A stretch of 64,000 nucleotides of DNA from Lophium mytilinum. Lineage: Eukaryota. The translations under genes and the position numbers were made by a program. Below, in pieces: positions 4,374-58,941 of the stretch (its first letter is position 1; each line of letters starts with the position of its first letter). The DNA lies in contig MU004187.1 of NCBI GenBank assembly GCA_010093605.1, positions 372,001 to 436,000 on the forward strand, in the 5' to 3' direction. The notes beneath the pieces were generated by a model, which was not told where the DNA came from, did no database searches, and saw nothing but the letters and a program-made list of their open reading frames with translations.

Positions 4374-6346
4374 CTATTTCGCCTTCTCCTGCTTACCCGT
4401 TGGGATCTGGAAGCACACAGCTGGCTCGCCATGTTTGAAAGCCTTGTCGACTCTGAAGTATCCCTTCCGATCGAATTGAATTATGTCGTCCTCCTTCAGC
4501 TCAGCCACATTGCAGTCAGCCAGCGTCTGCGAGCGGAACTCGGTTTTCGGCGATAAGAAGTCCTCCAACTGATCACCCTCCTCAAGTTTGTCCTTCGTGA
4601 TGAGGTAGTCGAAGTCGACGAGGTCGACCGGGATAAGCTCCTGATCGGTCGAGAGCCACGTGATCTTCTTGCTAGTCTTCTTGACATCACCTTGGAGATG
4701 TAGCTCAAGCTCGACGCCGGTGACGGTTTTCAGACCCGCAGGCGAGGCGAGCGGGTTGATAGAATGCGACACACTGCGCACAATGGCGTTGCCCCAAGCC
4801 ATAAGGGTGATCTCCTCGTCTTGGGCGAAGGAGGCGGCGTCAGCCTGCTCGATAATGATGGACTGACTGTAGACGACCTTCTTGGTCCCCACGTCTTTGT
4901 TCTTGGCGTGCTTGTCTTTCTCCTCGGTATATGGGGCGTCGCGCGCGCCGATGACTTTAACGGGGACTTTGCCCTCGGTGGAGATGGCGGTGAACCGGGG
5001 CGCGACTGGGTCGATGTACTTCTTGTTAGTAGCCCAGAAGGTCGTCCAATCGAGGTTTACGATGTTCTTGGAAGGACCCTGCTTGAGGATGAACTCTTGC
5101 AGGGCAGGAATCGTCATGCCACGGCGGCGAACACCACGGACAGTAGGCATGCGCGGGTCGTCCCAGCCCCAAACCACGCCAGTGTCTACAATACGGGTGA
5201 GCTTGCGCTTTGAGAGCAGGGTTCGGCGGAAGTTCATGCGGGCAAAGTCCCAGTTGTAGACGTTGCGAAGCTTGAGAGCTTTCAGGAACCATTGGTATTG
5301 AGCATCGCGGTCCTTGTACTCGGTGGTGCGGAGAGCGTGTGTCACTCCCTCAAGGGCATCGATGAGAGGGCAGCAGAAATCATAGGTCGGGTAGATCTTC
5401 CACTTGTCCCCTGTCCGGTGATGAACCTCAGGGCTGCAGCGATAGATCACCGGATCGCGCATGGCCTTATTTGGGTTGTCGACTGAGATCTTAGCCCGAA
5501 TACACCAACGGATGCCCTCAGCCGTGCCCTTCTTCATCTCCTCGAACCTAGCCAGATTGTCCTCGACGGTGGCATCCCGTCGCTCGCTGGCAATACCGTT
5601 CATGCGCTCGTCCCGCATCTTCTCCTGCAGCGTGTCGTCCGCGTAGGCGTTGCCGTCCTTGATAATCTGCACACAGTATTCGTATAGCTCTTGGAAGTAG
5701 TCACTCGTGTGAGATGTCTTGTCTGCCTTGATGCCCATAAGAGCCAGATCCTCCACAATTGCATCCTGGAACTCTTGTTTCTCTTTGATAGGGTTGGTGT
5801 CGTCGAAGCGGAGGAGGAGGATTCCCTTATACTTTTTGTGCGCGAAGAAGTCATTGAGAAGGGCGGCCTTCGCGTGCCCGATGTGGAGATAGCCTCTGAG
5901 ATGGTTGTTAGCACACAGCATGGGATTGGGTCTGTCTAGGTAACGTACGAAGGCTCAGGCGGGAATCGCGTGATGACGGTACCCTCGACCTCCTGGAGCC
6001 CAATGTCGAAGCTCCCACCCTCATCTTTGGCCTTCTCTTCTGCTGTCTTGGCTCCTTTCGCGGGGCGTATAGGCAGTGTCGCAGTCTCGGGGGATGTCTC
6101 CTCGATGTACTTGAACCATCTGGAGAGATTGGCCATGAGGCCCTGCTTGATGTAGGCATGAGCCACACGGTTCTCTCTTAGTGTTCTCCAGACGGTAGTA
6201 TCGGCATCGGTCAGGCTATATCCCACAATGTAACTTCGAAGGGTCAAGTGTGCGTCGAGTTCAGCGAGAGCAGGCTCAATGGCTTTCAGATTGAGGGCCT
6301 TGAGATCATCCGCGCGCGTCTGCCACTCCTTGATTTGGGCGTCCAT
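4374..6346 (-). CDS. GUS1: Cytoplasmic glutamyl-tRNA synthetase (2 exons: 6346-5949, 5895-4374)
   Basis: Splicing intron 5948-5896 (GTACGT..GCTAAC..CAG) gives RFPPEPSGYLHIGH (HIGH motif). Also RFDDTNP, LSKRKL (KMSKS-equivalent) and GWDDPRMPT, plus an N-terminal GST-C-like segment. Confidence 0.95.
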
Positions 6347-6727: not shown

Positions 6728-8422
6728 ATGGCCGACGCAGGACCCGCAGAGCCGTCGAAGAACGCGCTGAAGAAGGCAGCCAAGGACAAAGAGAAGGCCG
6801 AGAAGAAAGCCGCCGCGAAAGCTCGAGAACTGGCCGAGCGACAGAAGAAAGAGACCGACGATGCCAACGACGTCTCCGTTGACTCATATGGCGAACTTCC
6901 GCTATGCGGATCCACCGACTTCAAGCCTACCAACATACCCCGGGAATCGCTAGCCAGCATCGCCGAGCACGAAGACAAGACTATTGTGTTCCGCAGCTGG
7001 GTCGTGAACGCCCGTGTCCAGTCTGCAAAGCTGGCCTTCTTGAACCTGAGACAGGGGCTCCATACCGTTCAGGCTGTGGTGGCCGCGAGCGAGACGCTGA
7101 GCAAGCAGATGGTCAAGTTCTGCGGCAACATCTCCACCGAGTCAACGATTGTGGTGCATGGCTTGGTCAAAAAGACGAAGGAGCCGATCAATAGCGCAAC
7201 CATCAAGGACTACGAAATCCATATCCAGAAGCTATTCATCGAAGCCAAGGCCGAGGTGCCGCTACCTCTGCAGGTCGAGGATGCTGAACGCCCAATTCCA
7301 AGCGAAGGACTAGGAGATGAGGATGAAAAGGCTACTGAAGGAGGCGAGAAACCTATCGTGGGGCTAAATACAAGACTGAACAACAGGACCTTGGATTTGC
7401 GAGCAAAGACTAACCAAGCCATCTTCGTCGTCAAGAGCGGTGTTTGTGCTTTGTTCCAGGAGTTCCTCAGCCAGAAAGGTTTCATTCTCATCCAGACTCC
7501 CAAGATCCTAGGGGCTGCGTCAGAGGGCGGCGCGAATGTCTTCGAGGTCAAGTACTTCGACCGCCCTGCCTTTTTGGCCCAGAGTCCCCAATTCTACAAG
7601 CAGATGCTCATCGCTTCCCGTTTCCAGCGCGTTATGGAGATTGGTCCTGTTTTCCGTGCCGAAAATAGCAACACCGCACGCCATCTGACTGAGTTCACCG
7701 GGTTGGATATGGAGATGGAGTTCCAAGAGAACTACCACGAAGTCATGGGCATGCTCGAGGATCTGATGCTGTTCATCTTCAAGGAGCTGAATGCTAGGTA
7801 TAAGAAGGAAACCGACCTCGTCCGAAGTGCGTACCACGTCGAGGAGTTCAAGCTTCCCGAGTCAGGCAAGGTGCCCCGAATCCCATTCAAAGAGGGCATC
7901 AAGATGCTCCGAGAAGCTGGAGAAGAGCTAGGCGACTACGACGACCTGAGGTAAGCTCCACCCACTCCCCCTGCGTATCCTTCAGTCTAGCTGAAGCTAA
8001 TTCTCCTCAGCACACCCCAAGAGAAGCACCTCGGCCGACTCGTCCTCGAGAAGTACGGCACCGACTTCTACGTGCTTGACCAGTTTCCCCTCGCCATCCG
8101 CCCCTTCTACACCATGCCCTCGCCCGCCGACCCGCTACTTTCAAACTCATACGACATGTTCATGCGCGGCCAGGAGATCCTTTCCGGCGCTCAGCGTATA
8201 CATGACTCGAAGCTCCTCGACAAGCGCATGCGCGAGCACGACCCACCGGTCGACCCGGAAGGTGCAGGCACGAAAGACTACGTGCAATCGTTCAAGTATG
8301 GCTGCCCGCCGCATGGTGGCGGAGGATTCGGTTTGGAGCGTATCGTGCAATTCTGGCTGGGTCTGCCAAACATTCGGATGACTAGCTTGTTCCCGCGTGA
8401 CCCAATAAGGCTCATGCCGTAG
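6728..8422 (+). CDS. DPS1: Cytoplasmic aspartyl-tRNA synthetase (exons 6728-7950, 8011-8422)
   Basis: Class II motifs [57 protein letters not shown] and FPRDP. Intron 7951-8010 is GTAAGC..GCTAAT..CAG. Confidence 0.95.
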
Positions 8423-11961: not shown

Positions 11962-14900
11962 GGATATTTTGGGTAAAGGTGAAGAAGTAACGAGCGCCTG
12001 CGCGGAGTTTGGAATGAGGCATACTCAGGGGGATATTATTCGCTTTTATGTCTTCATCTCACGGTCCTAACCTACGACAGGCATAGACGTTCGAGACAGA
12101 TGTGCTGGTGTGCGCTGGCCTACAACGCAGTCCAATATGAAGATGATATGTCTAGAATGACACCTTCTCCCTTTAACATCATTATGATGCGGAGATGTGT
12201 TCACACATACGAATGAATAAATTGTCGTGGAGCGATATGATGGTGATTATTCATTTTTCGGGCGCAATCGGTCTGAATGACTAAGTTCAGTTTACTCCAC
12301 GCATTACTCTCGCCAACTCGTAACCGCTTGTTCCCAATCCCTTAGTCTGTCTAACTACAATCCTAGCATCATCTCTTCTACACATCATCAGTGAAATCGT
12401 TGGCCTAGGACCCCCCGTCACCCTCTCTATTCTCGTCATCTGCCAGCTTTCCCCCAGGTTTTCCGGCAGCTTTATCACCGACTAACACGCTCATGTTCTT
12501 CTCACATCTGACTGATCAACCTAGTCCGCCTTACAGAAGCCTCAGGTATAACACGACGCACAGACGTCTCGTCTCCGGCACGTGAGCGTCATGACAAGGG
12601 AGGTAGACTAACTAAGGGGGTCACGAATGTACAATTTTATATATGTAGTCGTAGGCACCCGTGCATAGCGCACCTGTATGCTAAAATTTGTCAGACTAAT
12701 TTCCAATGGGACGTGCGGAGGTTAAGAGGATCGCAGATGGTCGGTTAGTGGAAGGCTGGAGGAGTTTTTCCGAGATGTCAGTAGTATCGGATGCTCAGGT
12801 TGTCCTGGGGAAGGACATTGGCGGCTCACGTTTCTGAAGATGTTTTGGAGAAATCGAGAAAGGGACGAGCGGTCAGTATGCATTGGCTAGAGGGACAATA
12901 CTAGAGTACATTGAAGCTTTTGAGTTCGTTCTAAGTTGTGTAATGTTACTACGATCCTTAGGACTCCGTGGATCCCTCCAATTGCCACCTATTCTTCCTT
13001 CGAGAAAATGCGTTCTCGGACGGCTAACTGGGCAGTGGACAGGCAGAAAGGCTGAGTCTCTCACAGATTGGCCGAATCGTAGTGGGGAATCTTCCCCTTG
13101 AGGCCTCCGGAGGCTACGCTAGACATTTTTGAATAAGTTTCTTGAGAGAGATGTACCAAGATATCGTCCCCAGATTACCAAGGTCTGCCATGATCTCCCC
13201 AAGCAGTGGATTCTTCGCAATTCAGCCATTTGTAAATAGAGGGACCGTCAGATATCTGGGAGGCATCCTAGCTGCTCTAACTCGATCCGAAAGGCATTAG
13301 AGCCTACCGTGGGATCCATGTACCGTACTCTGCTGAGTTAAATCAATTCAATACGATCCAATACGCCGACACGGTATATCATTCATCTTGCCCGTATTCT
13401 CTCTCTCCTAGTCCCATCCTTGAGCTCCTCCGCCTTTCTCCTTGGTGATTACTCCGTTAAATAGTTCGTCGCTGTGGCCGAGAGGTCCAGGTAATGATCT
13501 TGGAACTTGTTGCCCAAGGTTGTCGCGCAATTGTTGGCCTTCAATGAGGGATGCCTATTTAGCGTCTGCTATCAGCAATCAACGGCAGAGCCAGCTTCGC
13601 GCGCCGGAACCCACGTTGAGCTGGTGTATATGCCGCCAGAGGCGTATGACCAGCGCGACAAGCACCACCCTCCACAGACCCCGGAGAAGCCTCCGCATCC
13701 TTTGTGATGCTCTGAATGTTCTTCGTGGTGTAGGGAAGGTGATTGCCTTCCAAAGTTGGGTTTGGTGGGCCGGCAGCGGCGACGGCGATTCCAGTGTTTC
13801 GCTAATGGGGAGGCATCATATCATAGCTGGCTTCTCAAGGCGGAAGACGTTCGGTACGATTGGTAGCTGGCTCGTCAAGGGGGTCGAAGAAGGGGGGATT
13901 CGAGATATGGATAGGTCTATGTGCGGTAGTGAGTGGTCTTTGCGGTAGAGGAGGTGAGCTAGCCGGGCGAGCTGGCAGATGTGGTGCGGAGTTTGCAGAA
14001 AAATGGCGTGAAGGCCGCCCACGGCGGAGTCGAGGGCTGCGAGGGCGGGGCCGAAGGAGAAAAGGAGTGGAATCATCGATCTGAATCTCGCTGTGATCCA
14101 GAAGGCTCGTGTTGTAGATCTGAGCGAGAACCTAGCTGATGTTGACGGGGAAGTGGATAAGGCGCGCTCTCGTGCTGCTGTGGAGAAAGGAGAGCACAAA
14201 AAGAACAGTTTGCCTACTACACGCCTCGAGGTCCTGCTTCATGATAGAATTCTTGCGTCTGGAGCATATGTGAGTGATTCTAGTTGATTGAGACCTGTCA
14301 TATCCGCAGAATGAGACGGTGCTGAGCCGCGGAAGCTGGATTGCCTTGAAAAAGGACAAAAAGAGATCGTGATACTCGCCACCACGGCGAATCGAACGTC
14401 GGCTCGGCCTACGCCCTCCCCCAAAACAAAACCACCAACAGCGACACCAAAAGGCAAAAAGGTTACCTCTCATGGTTACCACCTCAGGTTTCACCGACAG
14501 AAGGAGAGGTAGAGCCTTTACCAGTTACAGGTAGCGACCCCGTTAAGTCTGGCCGACAGTTGATTTTTGCGGCAGTGGTAATTGGAACCACCCTACCACT
14601 GAGCGAACCCTGCCTACCGTATGGCGGGGACTGTCAATTGGATACCGACAAAAATATTTCGAAATATAACCACTAAGAGAGATCTCACCTATGATATCTC
14701 ACATGTCCCCAGGCACAGCCGATGCCATCCTCCGAGCTGCCAATGCTGTCGCCGCCGTCTGCGAGATGGAGTTCCTTGATGCTGTCCGCGTCCAAAGGGG
14801 TGTTGGAGTCGGCCACGCCGCCCGTTCTGCGATGCTGAAGCCCGGGCCTCTCAACGCTTCCCATCACGCTCAACCGGAGTTCCACCGGCTCGATTTGTTG

Positions 14901-21681: not shown

Positions 21682-23195
21682 ATGGCAACTTCGTCCGTTG
21701 TTAAGCTCTCTGCCTCCCAGCATCCCGAGTTCTCTGTATCTGGGATTACTGCAGAGTCGGCGGAAGCGACATCGAAGCTGTTGCAAGAAAACCATGACCA
21801 CCATCATATCTTGTCTAGTCAATCCGGATTCCACGTACGTTATTTGCAAGCTCTTTGATGCTTTTAGCGTCATGTAGATTAGAGGACAGGCTCTAATCTG
21901 TACTCATCAGAACCACATCGCACATCACCTGCTCACACTGTTCGCTCTTGGCGCTTCACCATCAATCATCAAAAAGCAATATGATCGCAACAAGATTTAC
22001 CAGCGACCTCCAGGGGCGCTTGAAGACTCCGTAGTCGACGATATGCATGGTCCAGAACGCTTCAAGTCCTACTTGGGAGATGAGAAGTATTACCGTGACT
22101 TCCTAGTATATTTCGAGAAAGAGATTGAGCAGAAAGGCTGGGAGAACGTCCTCAACGAGTACGTGTTCGCAGGCGACGAACGTGCAGAAGACTTGCTCGT
22201 CCGGATGCACGGAGGTGTGTTCGATTTGAAAATCTCACTACGGTCTTCCGCTGAATATCTCTAGGCTTTCTCCATCCTATGATCCATCTCGGCTTCGGAG
22301 TGGAATTCCAACAACCAGCAATAATCGCGGAGGCACTCGCACAAGCAGCTGTTCACGATGATTGGATAGGCACGTTTCTCCTGCCCGCTGAACAGGCAGC
22401 GAAGAAAAATCATCAGTCGAAGTCGAAGTCTCTCGTTGAACTACTTGAGGAAATTCGCGCCGACAAGAAACTGAGCACCGCCGCAGACTGGGACGACGGG
22501 AATAAGATCCGAGACGGGCTGCTAAAGCGTGCACCAGAAGAGACGATCAAGTATGCCAGCCAATATATCGTACAAGAATCCGAGTTGAACGAGAAGGTTG
22601 CGGAGATGACAAATGCTGCCAGTGAGTGGCATCTCACTAACCTCCACACGTGCACCAGACTGACTGCGCCCTAGTCTACTACACCAGCAGCGCCCAGAAT
22701 CCGAAAAAGCTGATTAAGCTTGATTTTTACTATATGCACTGCGTCAACTCCTCTATCTTTTACTCGGTCTTCCTGAAGCAAGCCTGGCTTAGCAATGCAA
22801 ATAAGGTCCGAATTCTGGAATGGAAAGGTCGAATGGACTTGGCCATGTACGCATCGCGGCGGTCTCCGGATCTGCTCATCGATGAAGTCACCAGCTACAA
22901 GCCGAAAATTGCGATCAAAAACGCGTCTGATTCATGGGCTAACGTTTTTGAAAGAGTTAGAAATTATAGCGATGACGGACATTCGGCAAAGCTTGTGCGT
23001 GCGGTGGCTCACGGGCAAACGATCTCTGAGCCGTATGAGGCAACAGACAGTTTCAGAGTCAAACAGGATATGTGGTTGAATTTGGGCAATATGGTAATAG
23101 ATTCAGTGGAAGCGGGCGAGCCGCGTTGGGTGAGGTCGGCTGGATTTCCCCAAGCGTGGGATAATGTTCCTGACCGTCTTGGGGCACATTTGTAA
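21682..23195 (+). CDS. Questin oxidase / AflY(HypA)-like oxidoreductase family protein (DUF4243); introns 21835-21910, 22215-22264, 22622-22674
   Basis: Spliced motifs GFH-NHIAHHLLTLFALGA, GFLHPMIHLGFGVEFQQP..AEALAQAAVH, DFYYMHCVNSS, LEWKGRMDL and DDGHSAKLVRA. Confidence 0.88.
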
Positions 23196-23319
23196 TTGAA
23201 CCTGTAAGTCTTTGCAGGTCTGTGTAAATGTATTTCTCTTATCAATGCAGAAATTTTATTACATGCATCTCCAACGTAGGATTTTTGTTGTGCATCGGAT
23301 TACTTCCCGCAGTCAAAAA

Positions 23320-24544
23320 CTACCCAATATATTCAGGGTCCTGGTCCCATCCTTCTTGATATAGCGGATGCGAAGCTGTTGGCTTATCTATGATCGCATT
23401 CGGACGTTTATACGAACAGGTCTTCAGATGTCGACGACAACCTTCATGCAAGGAATGCATTCCGCACGCGCAAGGCGTATTTCCTCTCCCGTATATGATC
23501 TTACACTCCCAGCAAAAGTTGATACCACAGGGGCCTGTTGAGTCGTGCACGTTAGCACTATCCGGGTAGCCATGTCGGTCTGTTACAGTTCAGTCACTTA
23601 CATTTCATATTAATGCAGCCTCCATTCTTCTCAATCTGGTTGCTACACCCCTTCTTCGGGCATTTCTTCGTAATCTGCAAAATCCGTCGCTCGTTTGCCT
23701 CACTGTCGCCCTGTCGGGCTTTGTAGGCATCGCACGTCTCATCTGGATGCCCGGGGCCTTTACAAGCGAAGCAATTTAGCTGATTGCACTTTATACAACG
23801 CCATCCCGCTGCGGTTGGACCCGAGCACAGCTGGCCCCAAGTGCAGGACTCCTGGCCATCGTTGATCCGCCCACAACACCAGCGAAAATTAGGATCTTGT
23901 GAAAGAGCTCGATTCGTTACGAACTCGTTGTACTCGCGGAATGTGTCTGCCGGCGTGCTGGCTTGGATGTCTTTCCCGTCGAGCTCCTCTTCGCAATCGT
24001 TAGAGGGGCATTTGATGTACTCCCATCGCCCGCCGGAGATCTGGGCAACCAGCATTGCGGTTACGCAGTCTGAGCATACGTTTGGGTCGTGCGTGCATTT
24101 GGTACTAGGTGGTCTCGACGGTGCTTCGGAGAGAGGGTAGTCGACCATGCAGACCGGGCACTCAAACGTCCTGTATTCTTCAAGAAGCCCGAGATATTTC
24201 TCGTACACCGACGCTACGACTCGAGGTTTGACTACTTCTTCTTTCACAACTAAGAGTCTCCGGCAGCCTTCCTGAAAGCATGCCTGCTTCCGTGTTGAGA
24301 TATTCAGGACGAGGTCCTGGTCACATGATGGACAAGCACCGACGGCTTCGATGTTTAGTTGGTTGTTGTGTCCTGCTGGACATTCTGCGGCAATGATGGG
24401 GAAGTTTGAGCGGTAGGATGGATTGGGTGATGTATGAGTGGTGTCGCAACCTAGACATTGCCACGTGCCGGCCTTGGTGAGGACTTGGAAGGATAGATTG
24501 ACGTTGAAGCAGAGTTTCCAGTTTTCGAAATCTTCGTCTGCCAT
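23320..24544 (-). CDS. RBR (RING1-IBR-RING2) E3 ubiquitin ligase with extra N-terminal Cys/His-rich domain; intron 23601-23535
   Basis: RING1 is CPVC..C.H..VCSDC..IKCPSNDC. IBR is DPNFRWC..C..CIKC..CFACK..H..TC. RING2 is TKKCPKKGC..IEKNGGCINMKC-PCGINFCWEC. Confidence 0.9.
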
Positions 24545-25119
24545 CGTCTGTGGGTTAAGTTGAAGGATTCAGTGGAAGTCGGAGGAAGGAGAAGCGTTTG
24601 AAAAAAGTGATACAAGTTTGTGGAGCCGCGAGCAGACGAACTTCGAAATAGGATTGGCCGATCTGTAAGCTCTACTAATTTGCATAGGTAGTAAGGCTCT
24701 GAAACGACAGATATCCATTCTCCCAGACATCATTTATCGGCGCAGCACTCCAGCTGGAGGCGCCAGCTCAGCCTCGCGTCAACACTTCAACCTTGCATGA
24801 AGACGAACGCCACAATGACCCCACCTGAGCAGCTCTGGCCCATCTATCCGCCCAGAATGAAATGGAACATGCCTCGCTTCTTGGTACTTCTCAGCCTTGG
24901 TCAATTTGCCCTGACGAGCACGATGCGTGATCTAATAGGGCGTTCAGGGCTACGCATGTCTCAGCCTTCCTTCACGCGTCACTTCTCTCTTCTCTGAAAA
25001 AATGCTCGAGTTTTCTCTCGTCCCCCGATTTCTGCCTCGAAGCACACTATCAATTCAGTTTTCTACACATATACATTCGCTTCTAGTATCTCAAATTCAC
25101 CCATATCTACATCTTTATT

Positions 25120-25855
25120 ATGTCCGAAATCAACGAGACCTACCACGCTCTCAAAGTGGAGGCCATCGATGGCTCCGAAGTCGTTAGCGTCACTGGAATG
25201 GCACGCTTTACCACTGTCAAGACCTTCAAGCGCATGCTCGCTACCAAGATCCGCTGTGACCCATCGGATCTTCGATTAATGGCTTTCGGAAGACCAATGG
25301 AAGACGGTAAGGCCGAGCTCAACCAACGCTTTCAGATACGTATCCTGTAATATTGATCCTTTGAAGCTTCCACCCTCGGCAACTGCGGCATTGAAGAAGA
25401 CACCATCATCACGCGCATCGTGACCGGCTCTGCGCCCTCGGACAACCCGTCCGCGTTCAAAGAACCCAAAGTCCGGCCCACTCCCACGACCCAAGCTACA
25501 GGCGCTCCATCAGATCACCCGTCCCAGCTTCGCGAGAAATACTCGGGCCCGCAGCTGAAAACCGTGTTCATCAAGAACCTCGACGGGAAGAGCTTGACGG
25601 TGCATGATATCCCGCTGCAGATGCCTGTGCGGGAGTTTGTGGTCTATTTTGCGCATGAGAAGGGGCTCGACTCGGAGGGGATACGATTGTTGTTTGGTGG
25701 AAAAGAGTTGAATGAGAAGAGCGAGCATATGCTTATGGATTATGGGATCATGAATGTGAGTGTGCTATGCCTTTGCAGGGAAATGGTAGTAAGAAGCTAA
25801 CATATGGTAGGGATCTGAGCTGAGGCTTGTATACCGACTAAAGGGAGGGCTTTGA
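25120..25855 (+). CDS. Two-domain ubiquitin-like protein ending in RLKGG-L (exons 25120-25306, 25367-25755, 25811-25855)
   Basis: Ubl1 is TVKTFKRMLATKI..DLRLMAFGRPMED-ASTLGNCGIEEDTII. Ubl2 is VFIKNLDGKSLTV..IRLLFGGKELNE..LMDYGIMN-GSELRLVYRLKGGL*. Both introns are GT..AG and keep frame; the second has a GCTAAC branch site. Confidence 0.85.
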
Positions 25856-26651
25856 TTGCTTTTAGTGGGAGTGACATGGTGCAAAGGGCTGTCGCTCTGC
25901 ATAATAGTATTTATGGAGGATTATATACGGCCGATCATCATATTTGATACTGTACACAATTTTGATATACGTAGCAATATCAATGAGTACTAAGCAACTT
26001 ATTCCTCATACCTTCGCTTCAACTGAGCTACGAACACATACAGCCTGCGCAAAGTGTTGATCACAATTCGAAACAGTAGTGTGGCACTGTGGCGCTCGCA
26101 CCGCCACGCAGCTGAAAACGACGCCAGGTTTCTCCCCTCGAACCTAGGTATCGCCTCCCCCTCCTTCACCATCGCGGCGCAACTCCTCGCTAACCCCATG
26201 ACCGCCTCGTTTCATCCCAATACTGTGCCAGAAAGGCACCTGAAACGTCTCTGGGCGACGGCTGCGGCCTTGCAGCTGTTCTGCTGCCACGAATTGGATG
26301 GCCACGGCCGAGACAATCTACTCGCCTGCAGCTGGGCGAGAAGATTGTAACAGACCTGCCGGGCGTACTCCGATGTCGTCGGCGGCGGAAGTGGTTAGAC
26401 TAGGCCGATGGGAGAGGGCGAGAAGGCAAGTACATTCTTTGCGGCGGCCTTGCATGAGCTGGCCTGAGGCGGGAGCCTCAGCCTTGCGAATGGGGGCTAG
26501 TAGGGTGGAGCTGTGAGTGATTTAGCGTTTCGGACTCTGAGTAATGTTGTTTGTCATGCTTCGCTTTTTCTTAGTACCATATCCTAGTCTTTCATCTGTC
26601 CAATTCCTATGCTTGCTGGTATTGTGTTCTCTCGAGTAGATTGAAGCCATC

Positions 26652-53919: not shown

Positions 53920-56900
53920 ATGGCTCCGCCTGGGGGCTCAGAGGTGAGGGCCACAGGGTTCACGACCCTCTATGAGCCGGGGCCAGGACTGGCAAAGGTA
54001 GAGTAAGTACCAAATATCGCCCCTCGATCTGACGGAAGTTGAGTATCGTAATGACAGCATCATCTTTGTCCACGGACTTGGAGGCCATCCTCGTACCACC
54101 TGGGCGACCTCGAACAAATTGATAGGGAAGGGGAAGGCCAAGCAAGAGGAAAAGAAGGCGAGCAAGAAAGAGAGGAAGAAGGGAATATCACGTATTGGCG
54201 GTCTCTTCAAAAGGTCGCCGAGTCGTCGTAAGGATAACGATGCGCAAGAAATTAGCGCGACCGATAAATTCACCGATGCAACAAGACATGACGGATCCGA
54301 TGCGGGGGTAACGGTACCTTCTGATGACCAAGAGATTGAGAGAAAGGAGCGGGAGCATAGGAAGGCAGTTTCGACAACGGTGTTCTGGCCGAAGGACCTG
54401 CTGCCTAAAGTGTGCAATAATGCACGCATTCTGACTTGGGGCTACGACGCGCAAGTAACGAAAGGCTGGTGGTCTGCTGGAGCTAACAAGAACACCGTCT
54501 ACCAGCATGGAGAATCTCTTGTCAATGACCTTCCACGACACCGAGATCTCGAAAGGCCAATCATATGGATTGCACACTCTTTGGGAGGTATTGTCGTCAA
54601 AGAGGTAGGAGCGCCTCTCATTTCTTATTTCTCCTCGATTCTCTGGACACTTGATAACCATATATGCAGGCCCTTACTCTGTCGGATGCTGCCGACAAAG
54701 TAGATGAGCGTAGATTGAAGAACATTGTCATTTCTACGGCCGCAGTCGTGTTTATGGGTACTCCTCACAGAGGAGGTAACTCAGAACATGTTAGCTTGGG
54801 CGAAATAGCTCGCAAAGCCGCTAGCGCAGTCGGAATAGACACGAATCCGGCCTTGTTAGATGCTCTTGGGCTAAAAACTGCGGATCTTGAAAGACTTCAA
54901 AATTCTTTCTCTCGTCTTTGGAAATCATACAACTTTAGGGTCAAGACATTCCGGGAATCAACTGGATTTTCAAAAGTGAATATACGATCCGCTAATGACA
55001 AGGTAGTTCTATCCCCGTCCGTAGAGCGCGATGTCGCCATGTGCCAATACCATTGACCGTCTACTAAACATTGCGAGTTTTAGGTTGTCCCTGATATTTC
55101 GGCAAGCCTAGGAGATCCGAGAGAGCATGCCGAGATGCTGGACGGAAATCACACCGAAATCTGTCGCATGTCAGAGTCCGACACAAATTGGGGGAAGGTC
55201 TCTGGCGAACTGAAAGAGCTGTGTAGGGAAGCCGAAATACTGGCGGCAGCAAAGGCCAGGGTGGCTCCTAAAATCCTCGACAACCTTGACAAAGGTGTGG
55301 AAACCCAAACCCTCTAGCCTTCATCTTCGCTTATGGTCCGTCAAGAATGTCTTCGTTCTCTGTTCTTCCCCGAGATGAACGCCCGATCAAACGCAATTGC
55401 TGGGCCTGCCAATAATACGACCAATTGGATTCAGCAGGACAGTCGTTTCAACGCCTGGCATAATTGGGATGAAACTGCCCAACCCAATGCCCTCCTTTGG
55501 ATTAAAGGCAAACCTGGATCCGGAAAGTCGACAGTCATGAAGTCAATGATGAAGCAAATTGTTATTGACGACCGTGGCAGGGCTGATAACAGCATCAACT
55601 TGGTCATCTCATTTTTCTTTAGCGCCAAGGGAGTTCCACTGCAAAGGTCGTCGATCGGACTCTATCGGTCCTTGGTCTATCAGCTTGTGAATACGAATTC
55701 ACACATTCGAGAGGCTTTCTTACCACTTTGGCGAGAAAAGGTCCAAGATCTCGAATACATTGACGGTCAGCGAGTGACTGCGTGTCAGTGGCAAGAGACC
55801 GAGTTGAAATCATTCCTCGAGGAAGTTTACCGAAACAGACTCCCTGATAAAGTAAGGACAATCATATTTGTCGATGCTCTGGACGAATGCCAGGATGCTC
55901 ACGATACCGAGGTCATCTCAAATGAGGCACGCGACGTTGTCTTTTTCCTCCAAGAACTCTCAAGAATTGCCCGAAGCAACGGTCTGGCTTTAGATGTCTG
56001 CTTATCCAGCAGGTCTTCATTCACAGCCGGCACAAAGAATGTTCGTGAGATTATCGTAGACCAGTGCAATTTGAAAGATATATCAACCTACGTCAACGCA
56101 CGTCTTATAGCGATCGATAGTCGTGAGCCCGATAGTTTATGGAAGCTAGGCCAAGATATCGTGGAGAGATCCTCTGGCATTTTTCTGTGGGCGAAACTCG
56201 TCGTGGATATGCTACTTGACGATGCCGATGGTGGACGAAACATGGCGTATCTCCGGAAAAGACTCTCTACCCTGCCCCGAAACTTGGAGCAGATATACAA
56301 GGACATGTTGGAAAGTAGACGTGGAGAAGATGATAGCCAAGGGCTTACTGTTAAGTTCTTCCAATGGGCCATCTTCAGTGTCAAGCCTTTGCAGCTCCGA
56401 GAATGGCACCTCATTTTCGCTTTTATTCAATTTCCGCCGCCCAAGTCTCTAAGCGAATGGCAGTCATCTGAGAACTTCATCGCTGATAACGACGAACTGG
56501 AAAAGACAATTAGGCGGATTTCAAGAGGACTGGTTGAGGTGACGACAGGCCAAGAGTTGGAAATGTCGGATGAAGACTCAACGAAAGCAGGCGCTGGTTC
56601 TCTTGATCTTGAGATTGGAGATACACGTACAGTTCAAGTCATTCACGAGTCTGTTCGGGAGTTCTTCCGCTTTCGCGGTGGATTTGCCGTTTTGGACGAT
56701 CGATTCAATGGACCGGAATCGACGGCTGCTGAAGCACATTCGACCATTGTCGAATGCTGTCTCAACTACCTGAACATTAAGGAGTTTGATGATTGGATAG
56801 AGGCTAAACGCATCCATGATAATGATAGTTTATATGCCGTATCGCTACGGAGCCGAGCCGTTGGAGATTCTACCAGCATCTTTCGGCGAGCAAGTGTAGG

Positions 56901-58941
56901 AAGCTTTTGTTCCGCAAGCTCTCAATCATCTGATTATGGTAGGCCTGCTAAGACAGTGCCATCAATTTCTCACCTAAATTTAGATTCGGAAGGTCTCACA
57001 GGGAAGGACAAAGCGCTGCAAGATTTTTTGCTTGTGCAGCGTGAGCAGTATTTGTTTGCTGGGGAAGCAGCTTCGAAGACCGACACGTGCTGTATTCAAC
57101 CTCCGGATAATGCAACTTATCCTCATATCATTCCGAGTCCTGGAACCAGCTCTGAGAGTAGCATCATAAACGAATCGAGTAGCATTAGGTCATCACAAGA
57201 ACTGCAGATCTTAGGATCGGGAGCCAGAGACATATTAGCGCTCCGTGACTACGCGTTATACGAAGTGCTTACCCATGCAAAAGTCGCTCAGATTCCGGAT
57301 ATACCCCCGTTTGGTGTGGTTGGCCGATTCGTAAACACGTGGGAGCGCTTCCTACTCCTACGTGAGGATCTCAAGCGCGGAACGAGTTGTATTCAGTTTT
57401 GTCTCGGGATGAATATGATCCCGTACATCATACCGGCATTAGAGCTTCGAGTAGAACCACTCATCAATGCATTTTGCCTAGCTTCAGACTTGGACAACGA
57501 AGCAGCGATGAGGTGCATGGTGAGGAACCAGTGGGAGGTATACTCTGGTCTGAAAAGTACTTCCTTGGGCTCACAATGGAAGGACCTCTCGGAAAACATA
57601 GTAAGAAGGAACCATACATACGCACTCACACACTGGAGGCAGCAATGTGAACGACTACTCTGTGACGAGGGTATTTCGAACGACTGGATCCTGAACATTT
57701 TAGAAGGACGAGGACTAGAAAGACGAACGCCTCTGTTGTTAGTAGCCTGCGAACACGGTGCTGTTATGATGATCCAGATTTTGCTCGAAATGGGGGCAGA
57801 TCCGACGCAAGCCAGAGAAGAACTGAATGTCAAACAAACGCCTCTCGACTATGTATGTGAACACCACGAGGATTTTCACGATACTCTATATGAGCTCGTT
57901 GCGAGCCTCGTCCTTCACGGAGCAGTTGTAAACTCTGTTGGGAGGCTGTCCAATACACCCTTACATTGGCTTTGCAGTGCGTTCGCGGCAGCAGATACCT
58001 TTGACATGTCCAAGGTAGTCGAGCACCTCCTCGTAAACGGCGGCGACTTAGATGCTAAAAACGAGAGTGGCATGACAGCGCTGCACCTGTTCTGCTCATC
58101 GTACAAGGGCGAAACGACAAGCGATTTCACGAGCGTTTTGTCTAGATTAGTCGAATACGGGGGAGATATAAACACAAAAAACAATGTTGGGTACACACCG
58201 CTACACGATTTATGCTCCCGTCACTATTTCTATCGACAACCCTCGAGAATCAAGGAGTTGCTGAAGCTTGGCGGCGATCCCAACATGCAAGACCCATGCG
58301 GCCGAACACCGCTGCACCACAGTTGCACTTCTGGATCAAGTTCAGCAGCACCTTTTGTTCAGATGTTAATTTCTTTTGGTGCTGAGATCAATACCAGGGA
58401 CGTCGAAGGAAGAACCGCGTTGCATGTATATTGTGCCGCATACGACATCACCTCTAGTGTCGAAGTCGTCGCAACCCTTTTGGGCTTTGGTGCTGATGCC
58501 TCTGTCCAGGACTGCCACGGGCATACCCCTTTATCTACCATCGTCAAAACTTCACGGCGAGAGTCGGGTTACGACTTATGTCGTGATATCGCGAGACTAT
58601 TGCTCGAGAGAATGGCCGATATGGACGCTGCCGATCACATTGGAAAAACAGCGTTGCACGAAGCAGTCGATAATCACGATGGCTTGATGGTGGATATTCT
58701 CTTGGAACATCGCGCTAACGTAGATGTACAAGATGAATGCGGTAACACCCCTCTCCATTTAGCGGCCACAGGATTGACCATTGGTGGCCCAGTTGACACT
58801 CCGAGAAGACGGTGTGTGGCTGCGCTGCTGAAAGCAGGAGCAAACTCTGACTTAAAGAATTCCAAGGGTCAGGCCCCACCAGCGGACATCATTGCGGAAA
58901 TAACAGCGGCAAGCGCTTTACAAGTGCCGAAGCGTGGTTGA
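53920..58941 (+). CDS. Fungal NLR-like protein: N-terminal alpha/beta-hydrolase (SesB/DUF676-like) + NACHT + ankyrin repeats; introns ~54003-54057, 54605-54669, 55003-55083, 55295-55345
   Basis: Hydrolase motifs DIIFVHGLGGHPRTTW, FWPKDLLP..ARILTWGYD, AHSLGGIVVKE, FMGTPHRG and GNHTEICRM. NACHT motifs LLWIKGKPGSGKST, IFVDALDEC, GIFLWAKLV and IHESVREFF. About 9-10 G.TPLH ankyrin repeats follow. Confidence 0.9.

Follow-up and report, generated by a model that had tools for sequence, protein, structure and literature searches.

To our knowledge, the only tandem ubiquitin-like (Ubl) modifiers described so far are ISG15 and FAT10, which serve immunity in vertebrates. ISG15 was stated in a review to be restricted to vertebrates (PMC9722776), and FAT10 was described as two Ubl domains on a flexible linker with a free C-terminal Gly-Gly (GG) (PMC6102260). 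Ubiquitin ligases (E3) of the RBR type have been linked to both modifiers: ARIH1 was reported to catalyze the mono-ISGylation of cGAS (PMC9551088), and Parkin was named among the FAT10 E3 ligases (PMC10424871). Here, 64 kb of DNA from the wood-dwelling fungus Lophium mytilinum (Dothideomycetes, Mytilinidiales) was analyzed, and this whole stretch is called the window below. It contains a gene for a protein with two Ubl domains (the di-Ubl), which lies head to head with the gene of an RBR ligase. The di-Ubl is probably the precursor of a ubiquitin-derived tandem modifier that would work like ISG15 and FAT10, with a probability of roughly 0.55~0.6.

Splice signals in the window were located by a script, which gave two gene models. 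The di-Ubl gene is on the plus strand (ATG at 25120, span 25120-25855) and has three exons, which encode a product of 206 amino acids (aa). Its introns of 60 and 55 nucleotides (nt) are both of the GT..AG type, and the second one has a CTAAC branch site. The translation of the spliced exons (206 aa) matches the public L. mytilinum protein P0001 letter for letter. Exon 3 translates as GSELRLVYRLKGGL*, and the protein ends in RLKGG-L. The RBR gene is on the minus strand (ATG at 24544, span 24544-23320) and has two exons, a 385-aa product, and a single GT..AG intron of 67 nt with a CTAAC branch site. There are 575 bp (24545-25119) between the two starts. Both genes, their starts, their strands and the divergent spacing are as placed by a first-pass annotation that had been made from the DNA letters. 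The features of the locus are as follows.

23320-23534, minus strand: RBR exon 2, with the end of RING2 (CGINFCWEC...), the C-terminal tail and the stop codon (23320-23322); gene model and 385-aa orthologue P0006.
23535-23601, minus strand: RBR intron, 67 nt, GT..AG, CTAAC; an X1 contig joins 23533 to 23601.
23602-24544, minus strand: RBR exon 1, with the Cys-rich N-terminal region (aa 1-125), RING1 (about aa 129-184), IBR (about aa 204-271) and the start of RING2; Pfam IBR on the exon at E 9.1e-07, Cys/His pattern by eye.
23615-23617, minus strand: codon of the predicted active-site Cys310 in IEKNGGC-I-N-M; motif match with the Ariadne-1 RING2 chain 1wd2.
24545-25119, no strand: divergent intergenic region, 575 bp; the spliced contigs stop at 24741 and start at 24911.
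25120-25306, plus strand: di-Ubl exon 1, most of the proximal Ubl; Pfam ubiquitin family weak at E 0.022, and the structure model.
25307-25366, plus strand: di-Ubl intron 1, 60 nt, GT..AG; gene model and X1 contig.
25367-25755, plus strand: di-Ubl exon 2, with the end of the first Ubl, the disordered linker and most of the distal Ubl; Pfam ubiquitin at E 1.2e-07.
25756-25810, plus strand: di-Ubl intron 2, 55 nt, GT..AG, CTAAC; gene model and X1 contig.
25811-25855, plus strand: di-Ubl exon 3, GSELRLVYRLKGG-L and the stop codon, with the GG codons at 25844-25849 and the tail Leu at 25850-25852; identical to P0001.

The contigs labelled X1 belong to one public sequencing run, the kind of which could only be guessed to be RNA, and which covers 82% of the words sampled in 23100-26100. 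Two X1 contigs cover the region with no other differences, and skip 23534-23600, 25306-25365 (cut +1) and 25756-25810. A fourth intron skipped in an X1 contig is 47 nt long (GT..AG, 23204-23250, plus strand). Because four canonical introns are missing and there are no other differences, the run was taken as cDNA-like; transcription of both genes and the modelled splicing were accepted on this basis. Both introns predicted for the di-Ubl are confirmed by their absence from these contigs. The second intron is removed, and the spliced form carries the GG-L tail; a retained second intron, which had been named as an outcome contrary to the prediction, did not occur. Both genes are present in spliced contigs of one library; one contig stops at 24741 and the other starts at 24911, and such contigs cannot fix transcript ends, expression levels or co-expression. 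The 47-nt intron sits just past the stop codon (23193-23195) of a questin-oxidase-like gene on the plus strand. The same X1 contig continues through the convergent RBR gene, and the two 3' ends are at most about 125 bp apart or overlap.

The Pfam ubiquitin model PF00240 matched the di-Ubl in two stretches (E 9.2e-19, 67.4 bits against a cut-off of 25.4). The Rad60-SLD model also matched (E 2.9e-10), with a lower score than the ubiquitin model. In the AlphaFold2 model, which was built on a 12-row family alignment (mean predicted local distance difference test score, pLDDT, 74.7), both halves are predicted to have the beta-grasp fold, with a pLDDT of about 80~93. They are separated by a disordered linker of about 40 residues (about 32-45), of which residues 84-115 have a pLDDT below 50. 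The top Foldseek matches of this model in the PDB were linear di-ubiquitin (20~21% identity) and ISG15 (16~18%), at E 1e-14 to 1e-10 and a probability of 1.00.

Relatives of the di-Ubl were searched with HMMER among 1.84 billion representatives. The matches were the Mytilinidion orthologue and then many polyubiquitins, with 33~35% identity to the distal domain; true two-domain relatives were few, such as P0075 (32%) and P0109 (39%). A profile search gave 16 family members at E<=1e-5. The named members are from Lophium, Mytilinidion, Glonium stellatum, Sporothrix stenoceras, S. schenckii, S. eucalyptigena, S. brasiliensis and Ophiostoma piceae. They belong to the orders Mytilinidiales, Gloniales and Ophiostomatales, in two classes of Pezizomycotina. 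The range of the family is narrow and patchy among the matches, which as search results cannot prove absence elsewhere. In the linker (alignment columns about 125-135), a PPPY or PPY motif was found in the Sporothrix, Ophiostoma, Glonium and P0075 members (P0109, P0158-P0161, P0164, P0163 and P0075), and none in the Lophium/Mytilinidion clade. Motifs of the PPxY type are what the WW domains of Rsp5/NEDD4 ligases classically bind.

The family alignment has 12 full-length rows, with 25~93% identity to the first row. P0003, P0005, P0077, P0080, P0087, P0129 and P0165 are fragments or read into an intron, and were left out of the count of tails. Only 14 columns are invariant in the 12 rows, and two of these are the Gly-Gly. 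The residues that follow it are L, L, L, GCL, SE, DRITI, RQV, HQM, HDSA, Q, HDSA and WT, that is, tails of 1~5 residues without a conserved sequence. The GG is also present at two further C-termini, those of P0162 and P0108. The C-terminal ends are YRLKGG in Lophium and ARLRGG in Sporothrix, and the polyubiquitins from the same search end with GG and one residue (P0073, ...RGGN; P0107, ...RGGY). Because it is invariant across the family, the GG-plus-tail end is considered to be beyond chance. Such a protein end, an invariant GG plus a short unconserved tail, is the signature of a precursor whose tail is trimmed off so that the GG is exposed. Of the GG-x end whose conservation was to be checked, the GG is kept in 12/12 full-length relatives, and the x varies in length and sequence.

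The 12 rows were also mapped onto the positions of ubiquitin. The distal domain shares 34~42% identity with ubiquitin (36% in Lophium), and the proximal domain, which is without GG, shares 14~25% (18% in Lophium); single ubiquitin chains score about 68 bits with the family profile. The distal domain keeps K11, K48 and G75-G76 in 12/12 rows, and R42, R72 and L73 in 11/12 rows each. The hydrophobic surface of L8, an I44-like residue and V70 is also largely kept, with L8 in 9/12 and I or L at position 44 in 11/12 rows. K27, K29 and K63 are gone from the distal domain (0/12). R72 is the main residue by which the ubiquitin-activating enzyme (E1) tells ubiquitin from NEDD8, and the retention of this residue therefore suggests activation of the putative modifier by the ubiquitin E1. 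Comparison of the di-Ubl with its relative on a metagenome contig (L001) gave a nonsynonymous divergence (dN) of 0.29 overall, with 0.23 in the first Ubl, 0.28 in the second Ubl and 0.44 in the linker. The synonymous divergence (dS) was saturated (>1.9) or undefined, and only the statement that dN is far below dS can be used; it indicates purifying selection on both Ubl domains.

We infer from these observations how the protein might be processed, activated and conjugated. A general ubiquitin C-terminal hydrolase would remove the tail after the GG. In the next step the exposed GG would be activated, and the likeliest enzyme for this is the ubiquitin E1, as R42, R72 and L73, which face the E1, are retained and no private E1 was found among the scanned ORFs nearby. 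Finally, the two domains might be conjugated as one unit to lysines of target proteins, in the way known for vertebrate ISG15 and FAT10.

The di-Ubl resembles ISG15 in its two ubiquitin folds per chain, in its precursor with residues after a C-terminal R-L-(R/K)-G-G, and in that ISG15 was a top structural match. However, the identity to ISG15 in the structural alignments is below that to di-ubiquitin, and the distal domain is nearest to ubiquitin. ISG15 has a short hinge, whereas the di-Ubl has the long disordered linker. The end is LRLRGG in ISG15, YRLKGG in Lophium and ARLRGG in Sporothrix. ISG15 is a vertebrate protein, whereas the di-Ubl is fungal, and we know of no UBA7-type E1 in fungi. 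The di-Ubl is not an ISG15 orthologue, as its closest relatives are ubiquitin and polyubiquitin. The mammalian FAT10 protein is also similar in its two Ubl domains, flexible linker and C-terminal GG, and an RBR is among its E3 ligases in the sources cited above. In contrast to the di-Ubl, FAT10 is synthesized with its GG already at the end and depends on UBA6/USE1 as far as these sources describe it, and there is no sequence kinship between the two beyond the ubiquitin fold. Because the nearest relatives are ubiquitins, the linker is long and disordered, and the host is a fungus, the di-Ubl family is a member of neither the ISG15 nor the FAT10 family; it probably arose from ubiquitin independently of both.

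Polyubiquitin and linear di-ubiquitin are the best matches in sequence and in structure; they also consist of head-to-tail folds, with the last unit capped past the GG. Unlike polyubiquitin, the di-Ubl has about 40 linker residues between its folds, and K27, K29 and K63 are lost in all 12 rows. Moreover, the proximal domain of the di-Ubl is not releasable as a monomer, because it has no GG. The Rad60/Esc2/NIP45 proteins also have tandem Ubl domains (SUMO-like), in line with the Rad60-SLD match; these proteins are larger and are without a C-terminal GG.

The neighbouring gene is real and expressed, and is predicted from its sequence to encode an intact-looking Cys-relay E3. The Mytilinidion orthologue P0006 (385 aa) is 96% identical to the RBR of the window over exon 1, and the L001 orthologue is 75% identical. 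Pfam analysis of the orthologue gave the IBR family in two stretches (E 4.9e-11), plus IBR_1 at 292-334. The RING1 pattern C-x2-C-x17-C-x-H-x4-C-x2-C-x18-C-x4-C was read by eye from P0006, and there was no RING match in Pfam. The RING2 motif IEKNGGC...FCWEC was also found by eye in the RBR of the window, and IEKNGGC is invariant in 4/4 aligned rows. Its GGC aligns with the GGC of the Ariadne-1 RING2 (1wd2), at the level of the motif only (E 1.7). The protein therefore has the RING1-IBR-RING2 order, the IEKxGGC active-site motif and the FCWxC of the Ariadne/ARIH1-type RBRs, but differs from them in that there was no significant match to a solved RBR chain (no PDB chain at E<=0.01), and in an Asn in place of the His of C-x-H. 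The Pfam scan detected no Ariadne domain, no UBA-like region and no further domain in the RBR, and it could not be assigned to the Ariadne subfamily. In the ESM Atlas it falls only into generic RBR clusters, mostly from Ascomycota. A profile search with the N-terminal Cys-rich region gave only an insignificant RPA1 zinc ribbon (E 0.34). An NZF/RanBP2 finger was also considered for this region and dropped, because the spacing C-x2-C-x21-C-x3-H does not fit the motif of such fingers. The AlphaFold2 model of the RBR, from a 4-row alignment, had a mean pLDDT of 30.1 and was not used. With RBR exon 1 as the query, a protein search found the orthologue of Mytilinidion and no Lophium protein, whereas the di-Ubl search did return that of Lophium; the RBR may be absent from the public Lophium protein set, or modelled differently there. 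Compared with parkin, in which Ubl and RBR are in cis, they are here encoded by separate genes on opposite strands; in both cases a Ubl and an RBR could cooperate. The di-Ubl differs from the parkin Ubl by its GG end and its second Ubl domain, and there is no homology to parkin beyond the domain classes.

Metagenome contigs were scanned with the di-Ubl family profile, and this gave five loci (L001-L005). On L001 (a 34-kb contig), an RBR orthologue on the minus strand (6427-5134, 71~78% identical per segment) lies head to head with a di-Ubl on the plus strand (7001-7767, 52~58% identical), at a distance of 573 bp. The L002 sequence opens inside the RBR coding region of the opposite strand, within its first 11 codons, and the pairing is kept there too; L001 and L002 are from nearly the same organism and were counted once. 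Upstream on L001, SGT1 and the questin-oxidase-like gene follow each other as they do in the window, which gives the block SGT1 / questin-oxidase-like / RBR / di-Ubl. Downstream of the di-Ubl there is no match to the window, and the synteny stops there without splitting the pair. The intergenic region, compared with L001/L002, has patchy short shared blocks and no defensible motif. The loci L003-L005 hold intronless relatives (31~34%) on contigs of 1.0~1.9 kb, with 23~101 bp upstream of the match. In Mytilinidion, both orthologues are on a contig of 546,695 bp. The head-to-head pairing, the conservation of which was to be checked, is thus kept in one related organism, but only inside a conserved block of four genes. 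On this comparative sequence evidence, the conserved pairing argues weakly for a link to the RBR, and the conserved position points to the RBR as a possible partner of the di-Ubl, either as its E3 or as a Ubl-regulated enzyme.

Both genes of L001 apparently have one more intron than in Lophium: at 6012-6076 in the RBR gene, where a gap between tblastn segments falls at residue 116, and at 7577-7639 in the di-Ubl gene, where a GT..AG stretch lies inside the distal Ubl. The contig is strongly AT-rich at 12001-14000, downstream of the end of synteny (GC content 0.28~0.33, versus about 0.45~0.50 elsewhere), and the open reading frames (ORFs) between the end of synteny and this stretch matched no Pfam family. 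The neighbours of the pair in the window are housekeeping genes (two tRNA synthetases, RRP36, SGT1, SRP54, Rrp15 and a KAT11-type acetyltransferase), transporters and a NACHT-ankyrin gene. The latter is a long ORF (55318-58938, plus strand) that combines a NTPase domain of the NPHP3_N/NACHT type with numerous ankyrin repeats; it is like a fungal NLR and lies about 30 kb from the pair.

The reading of the di-Ubl as a precursor of a tandem modifier is grounded in the gene models, the splicing, the folds, the family, the invariant GG with its variable tail, and the purifying selection. Several points weigh against it or against a part for the RBR in it. The GG could in principle be retained as a relic, P0075 has a Ser at position 72, and O. 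piceae is without R42. No E1, conjugating enzyme (E2), deubiquitinase or Ulp domain was found in the 36 chosen ORFs of the window (15 + 21) that were scanned with Pfam. Relatives of the RBR were only 3/283 candidates, and none was from Glonium or Ophiostomatales, in a single-sequence, word-seeded search that is less sensitive than the di-Ubl searches. The L001 pairing is not independent of plain synteny, as it is a four-gene block in a fairly close relative. Furthermore, the His two residues after the catalytic Cys of RBR ligases has a catalytic role, and in 4/4 rows this His is an Asn (C-I-N-M, residues 310-312, 23615-23609, versus C-N-H-M in Ariadne-1). The di-Ubl might also be a decaying or neutral polyubiquitin duplicate without a function of its own, next to which the RBR lies incidentally. 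Its nearest sequences are indeed ubiquitin and polyubiquitins, and its taxonomic range is narrow and patchy; but both domains and the architecture are kept across two classes of Pezizomycotina, the dN of 0.29 is far below a saturated dS, the frames are intact, and the gene is correctly spliced in transcript contigs, which makes such a duplicate very improbable. A Ubl that is never conjugated could instead act as an adaptor or regulator, such as an allosteric activator or inhibitor of the RBR in trans, a proteasome adaptor, or an Rsp5/NEDD4 adaptor through PPxY, with the GG used for binding or left as a relic. Allosteric control by ubiquitin or Ubl is established for the RBR ligases parkin, HOIP and ARIH1 and offers a precedent; the largely kept L8 / I44-like / V70 surface would suit ubiquitin-binding domains, and the PPPY/PPY motifs of the Sporothrix, Ophiostoma, Glonium and P0075 linkers would suit the last variant. 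However, all 12 proteins end 1~5 residues past an invariant GG with an unconserved tail, as expected of a cleaved precursor and not of a binding module, and the Lophium clade has no PPxY; a purely regulatory protein is therefore unlikely.

The tandem-modifier reading leaves the E3 to be considered. In the most specific proposal, the RBR is the dedicated E3 of the di-Ubl: Cys310 of RING2 would take the di-Ubl over from an E2 and hand it on to substrates, and the two genes would share a bidirectional promoter for joint production. The spacing of 575 bp in the window and 573 bp in L001, the pairing in L002, the end of the L001 synteny right after an unsplit pair, the contig of 546,695 bp for both orthologues in Mytilinidion, and the occurrence of both genes in spliced contigs of one library are consistent with this, and the reports on Parkin and FAT10 (PMC10424871) and on ARIH1 and ISG15 (PMC9551088) offer precedents as far as these sources describe them. 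This evidence, however, is all positional and stems from a single clade; the block preserves housekeeping neighbours as well, no RBR relatives were seen beyond the close clade in the less sensitive search, and contig depth cannot measure co-expression. A dedicated pair thus seems rather unlikely. An extended scheme is more speculative and quite doubtful: a tandem modifier that evolved in Pezizomycotina would be conjugated in Mytilinidiales by a private RBR from the head-to-head gene, as a module of two genes with the E1 and E2 borrowed from ubiquitin, whereas elsewhere the PPxY in the linker of the attached modifier would recruit Rsp5-type HECT ligases. Of the new fungal Ubl with its own E3 that the first-pass annotation proposed, the Ubl precursor gained support from the GG in 12/12 relatives, the two folds, the purifying selection and the spliced transcript, whereas its own E3 is suggested by gene position only. 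By itself, divergent orientation is frequent where fungal genomes are compact, and chance could account for it.

No description of a fungal tandem Ubl or of these genes was found in the open-access full-text literature, which was searched by topics and locus tags. The di-Ubl is a testable candidate for a fungal modifier, with an unproven partnership with the RBR. The fungal modifier set comprises ubiquitin, Rub1, Smt3, Urm1, Atg8/12 and Hub1; if the reading is true, an independently evolved fungal counterpart of ISG15 and FAT10 would add a modifier to this set. It would also mean that a polyubiquitin copy can turn into a distinct signal, apparently still on the E1 determinants of ubiquitin. 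The family is present in Sporothrix species, and its function there could interest medical mycology.

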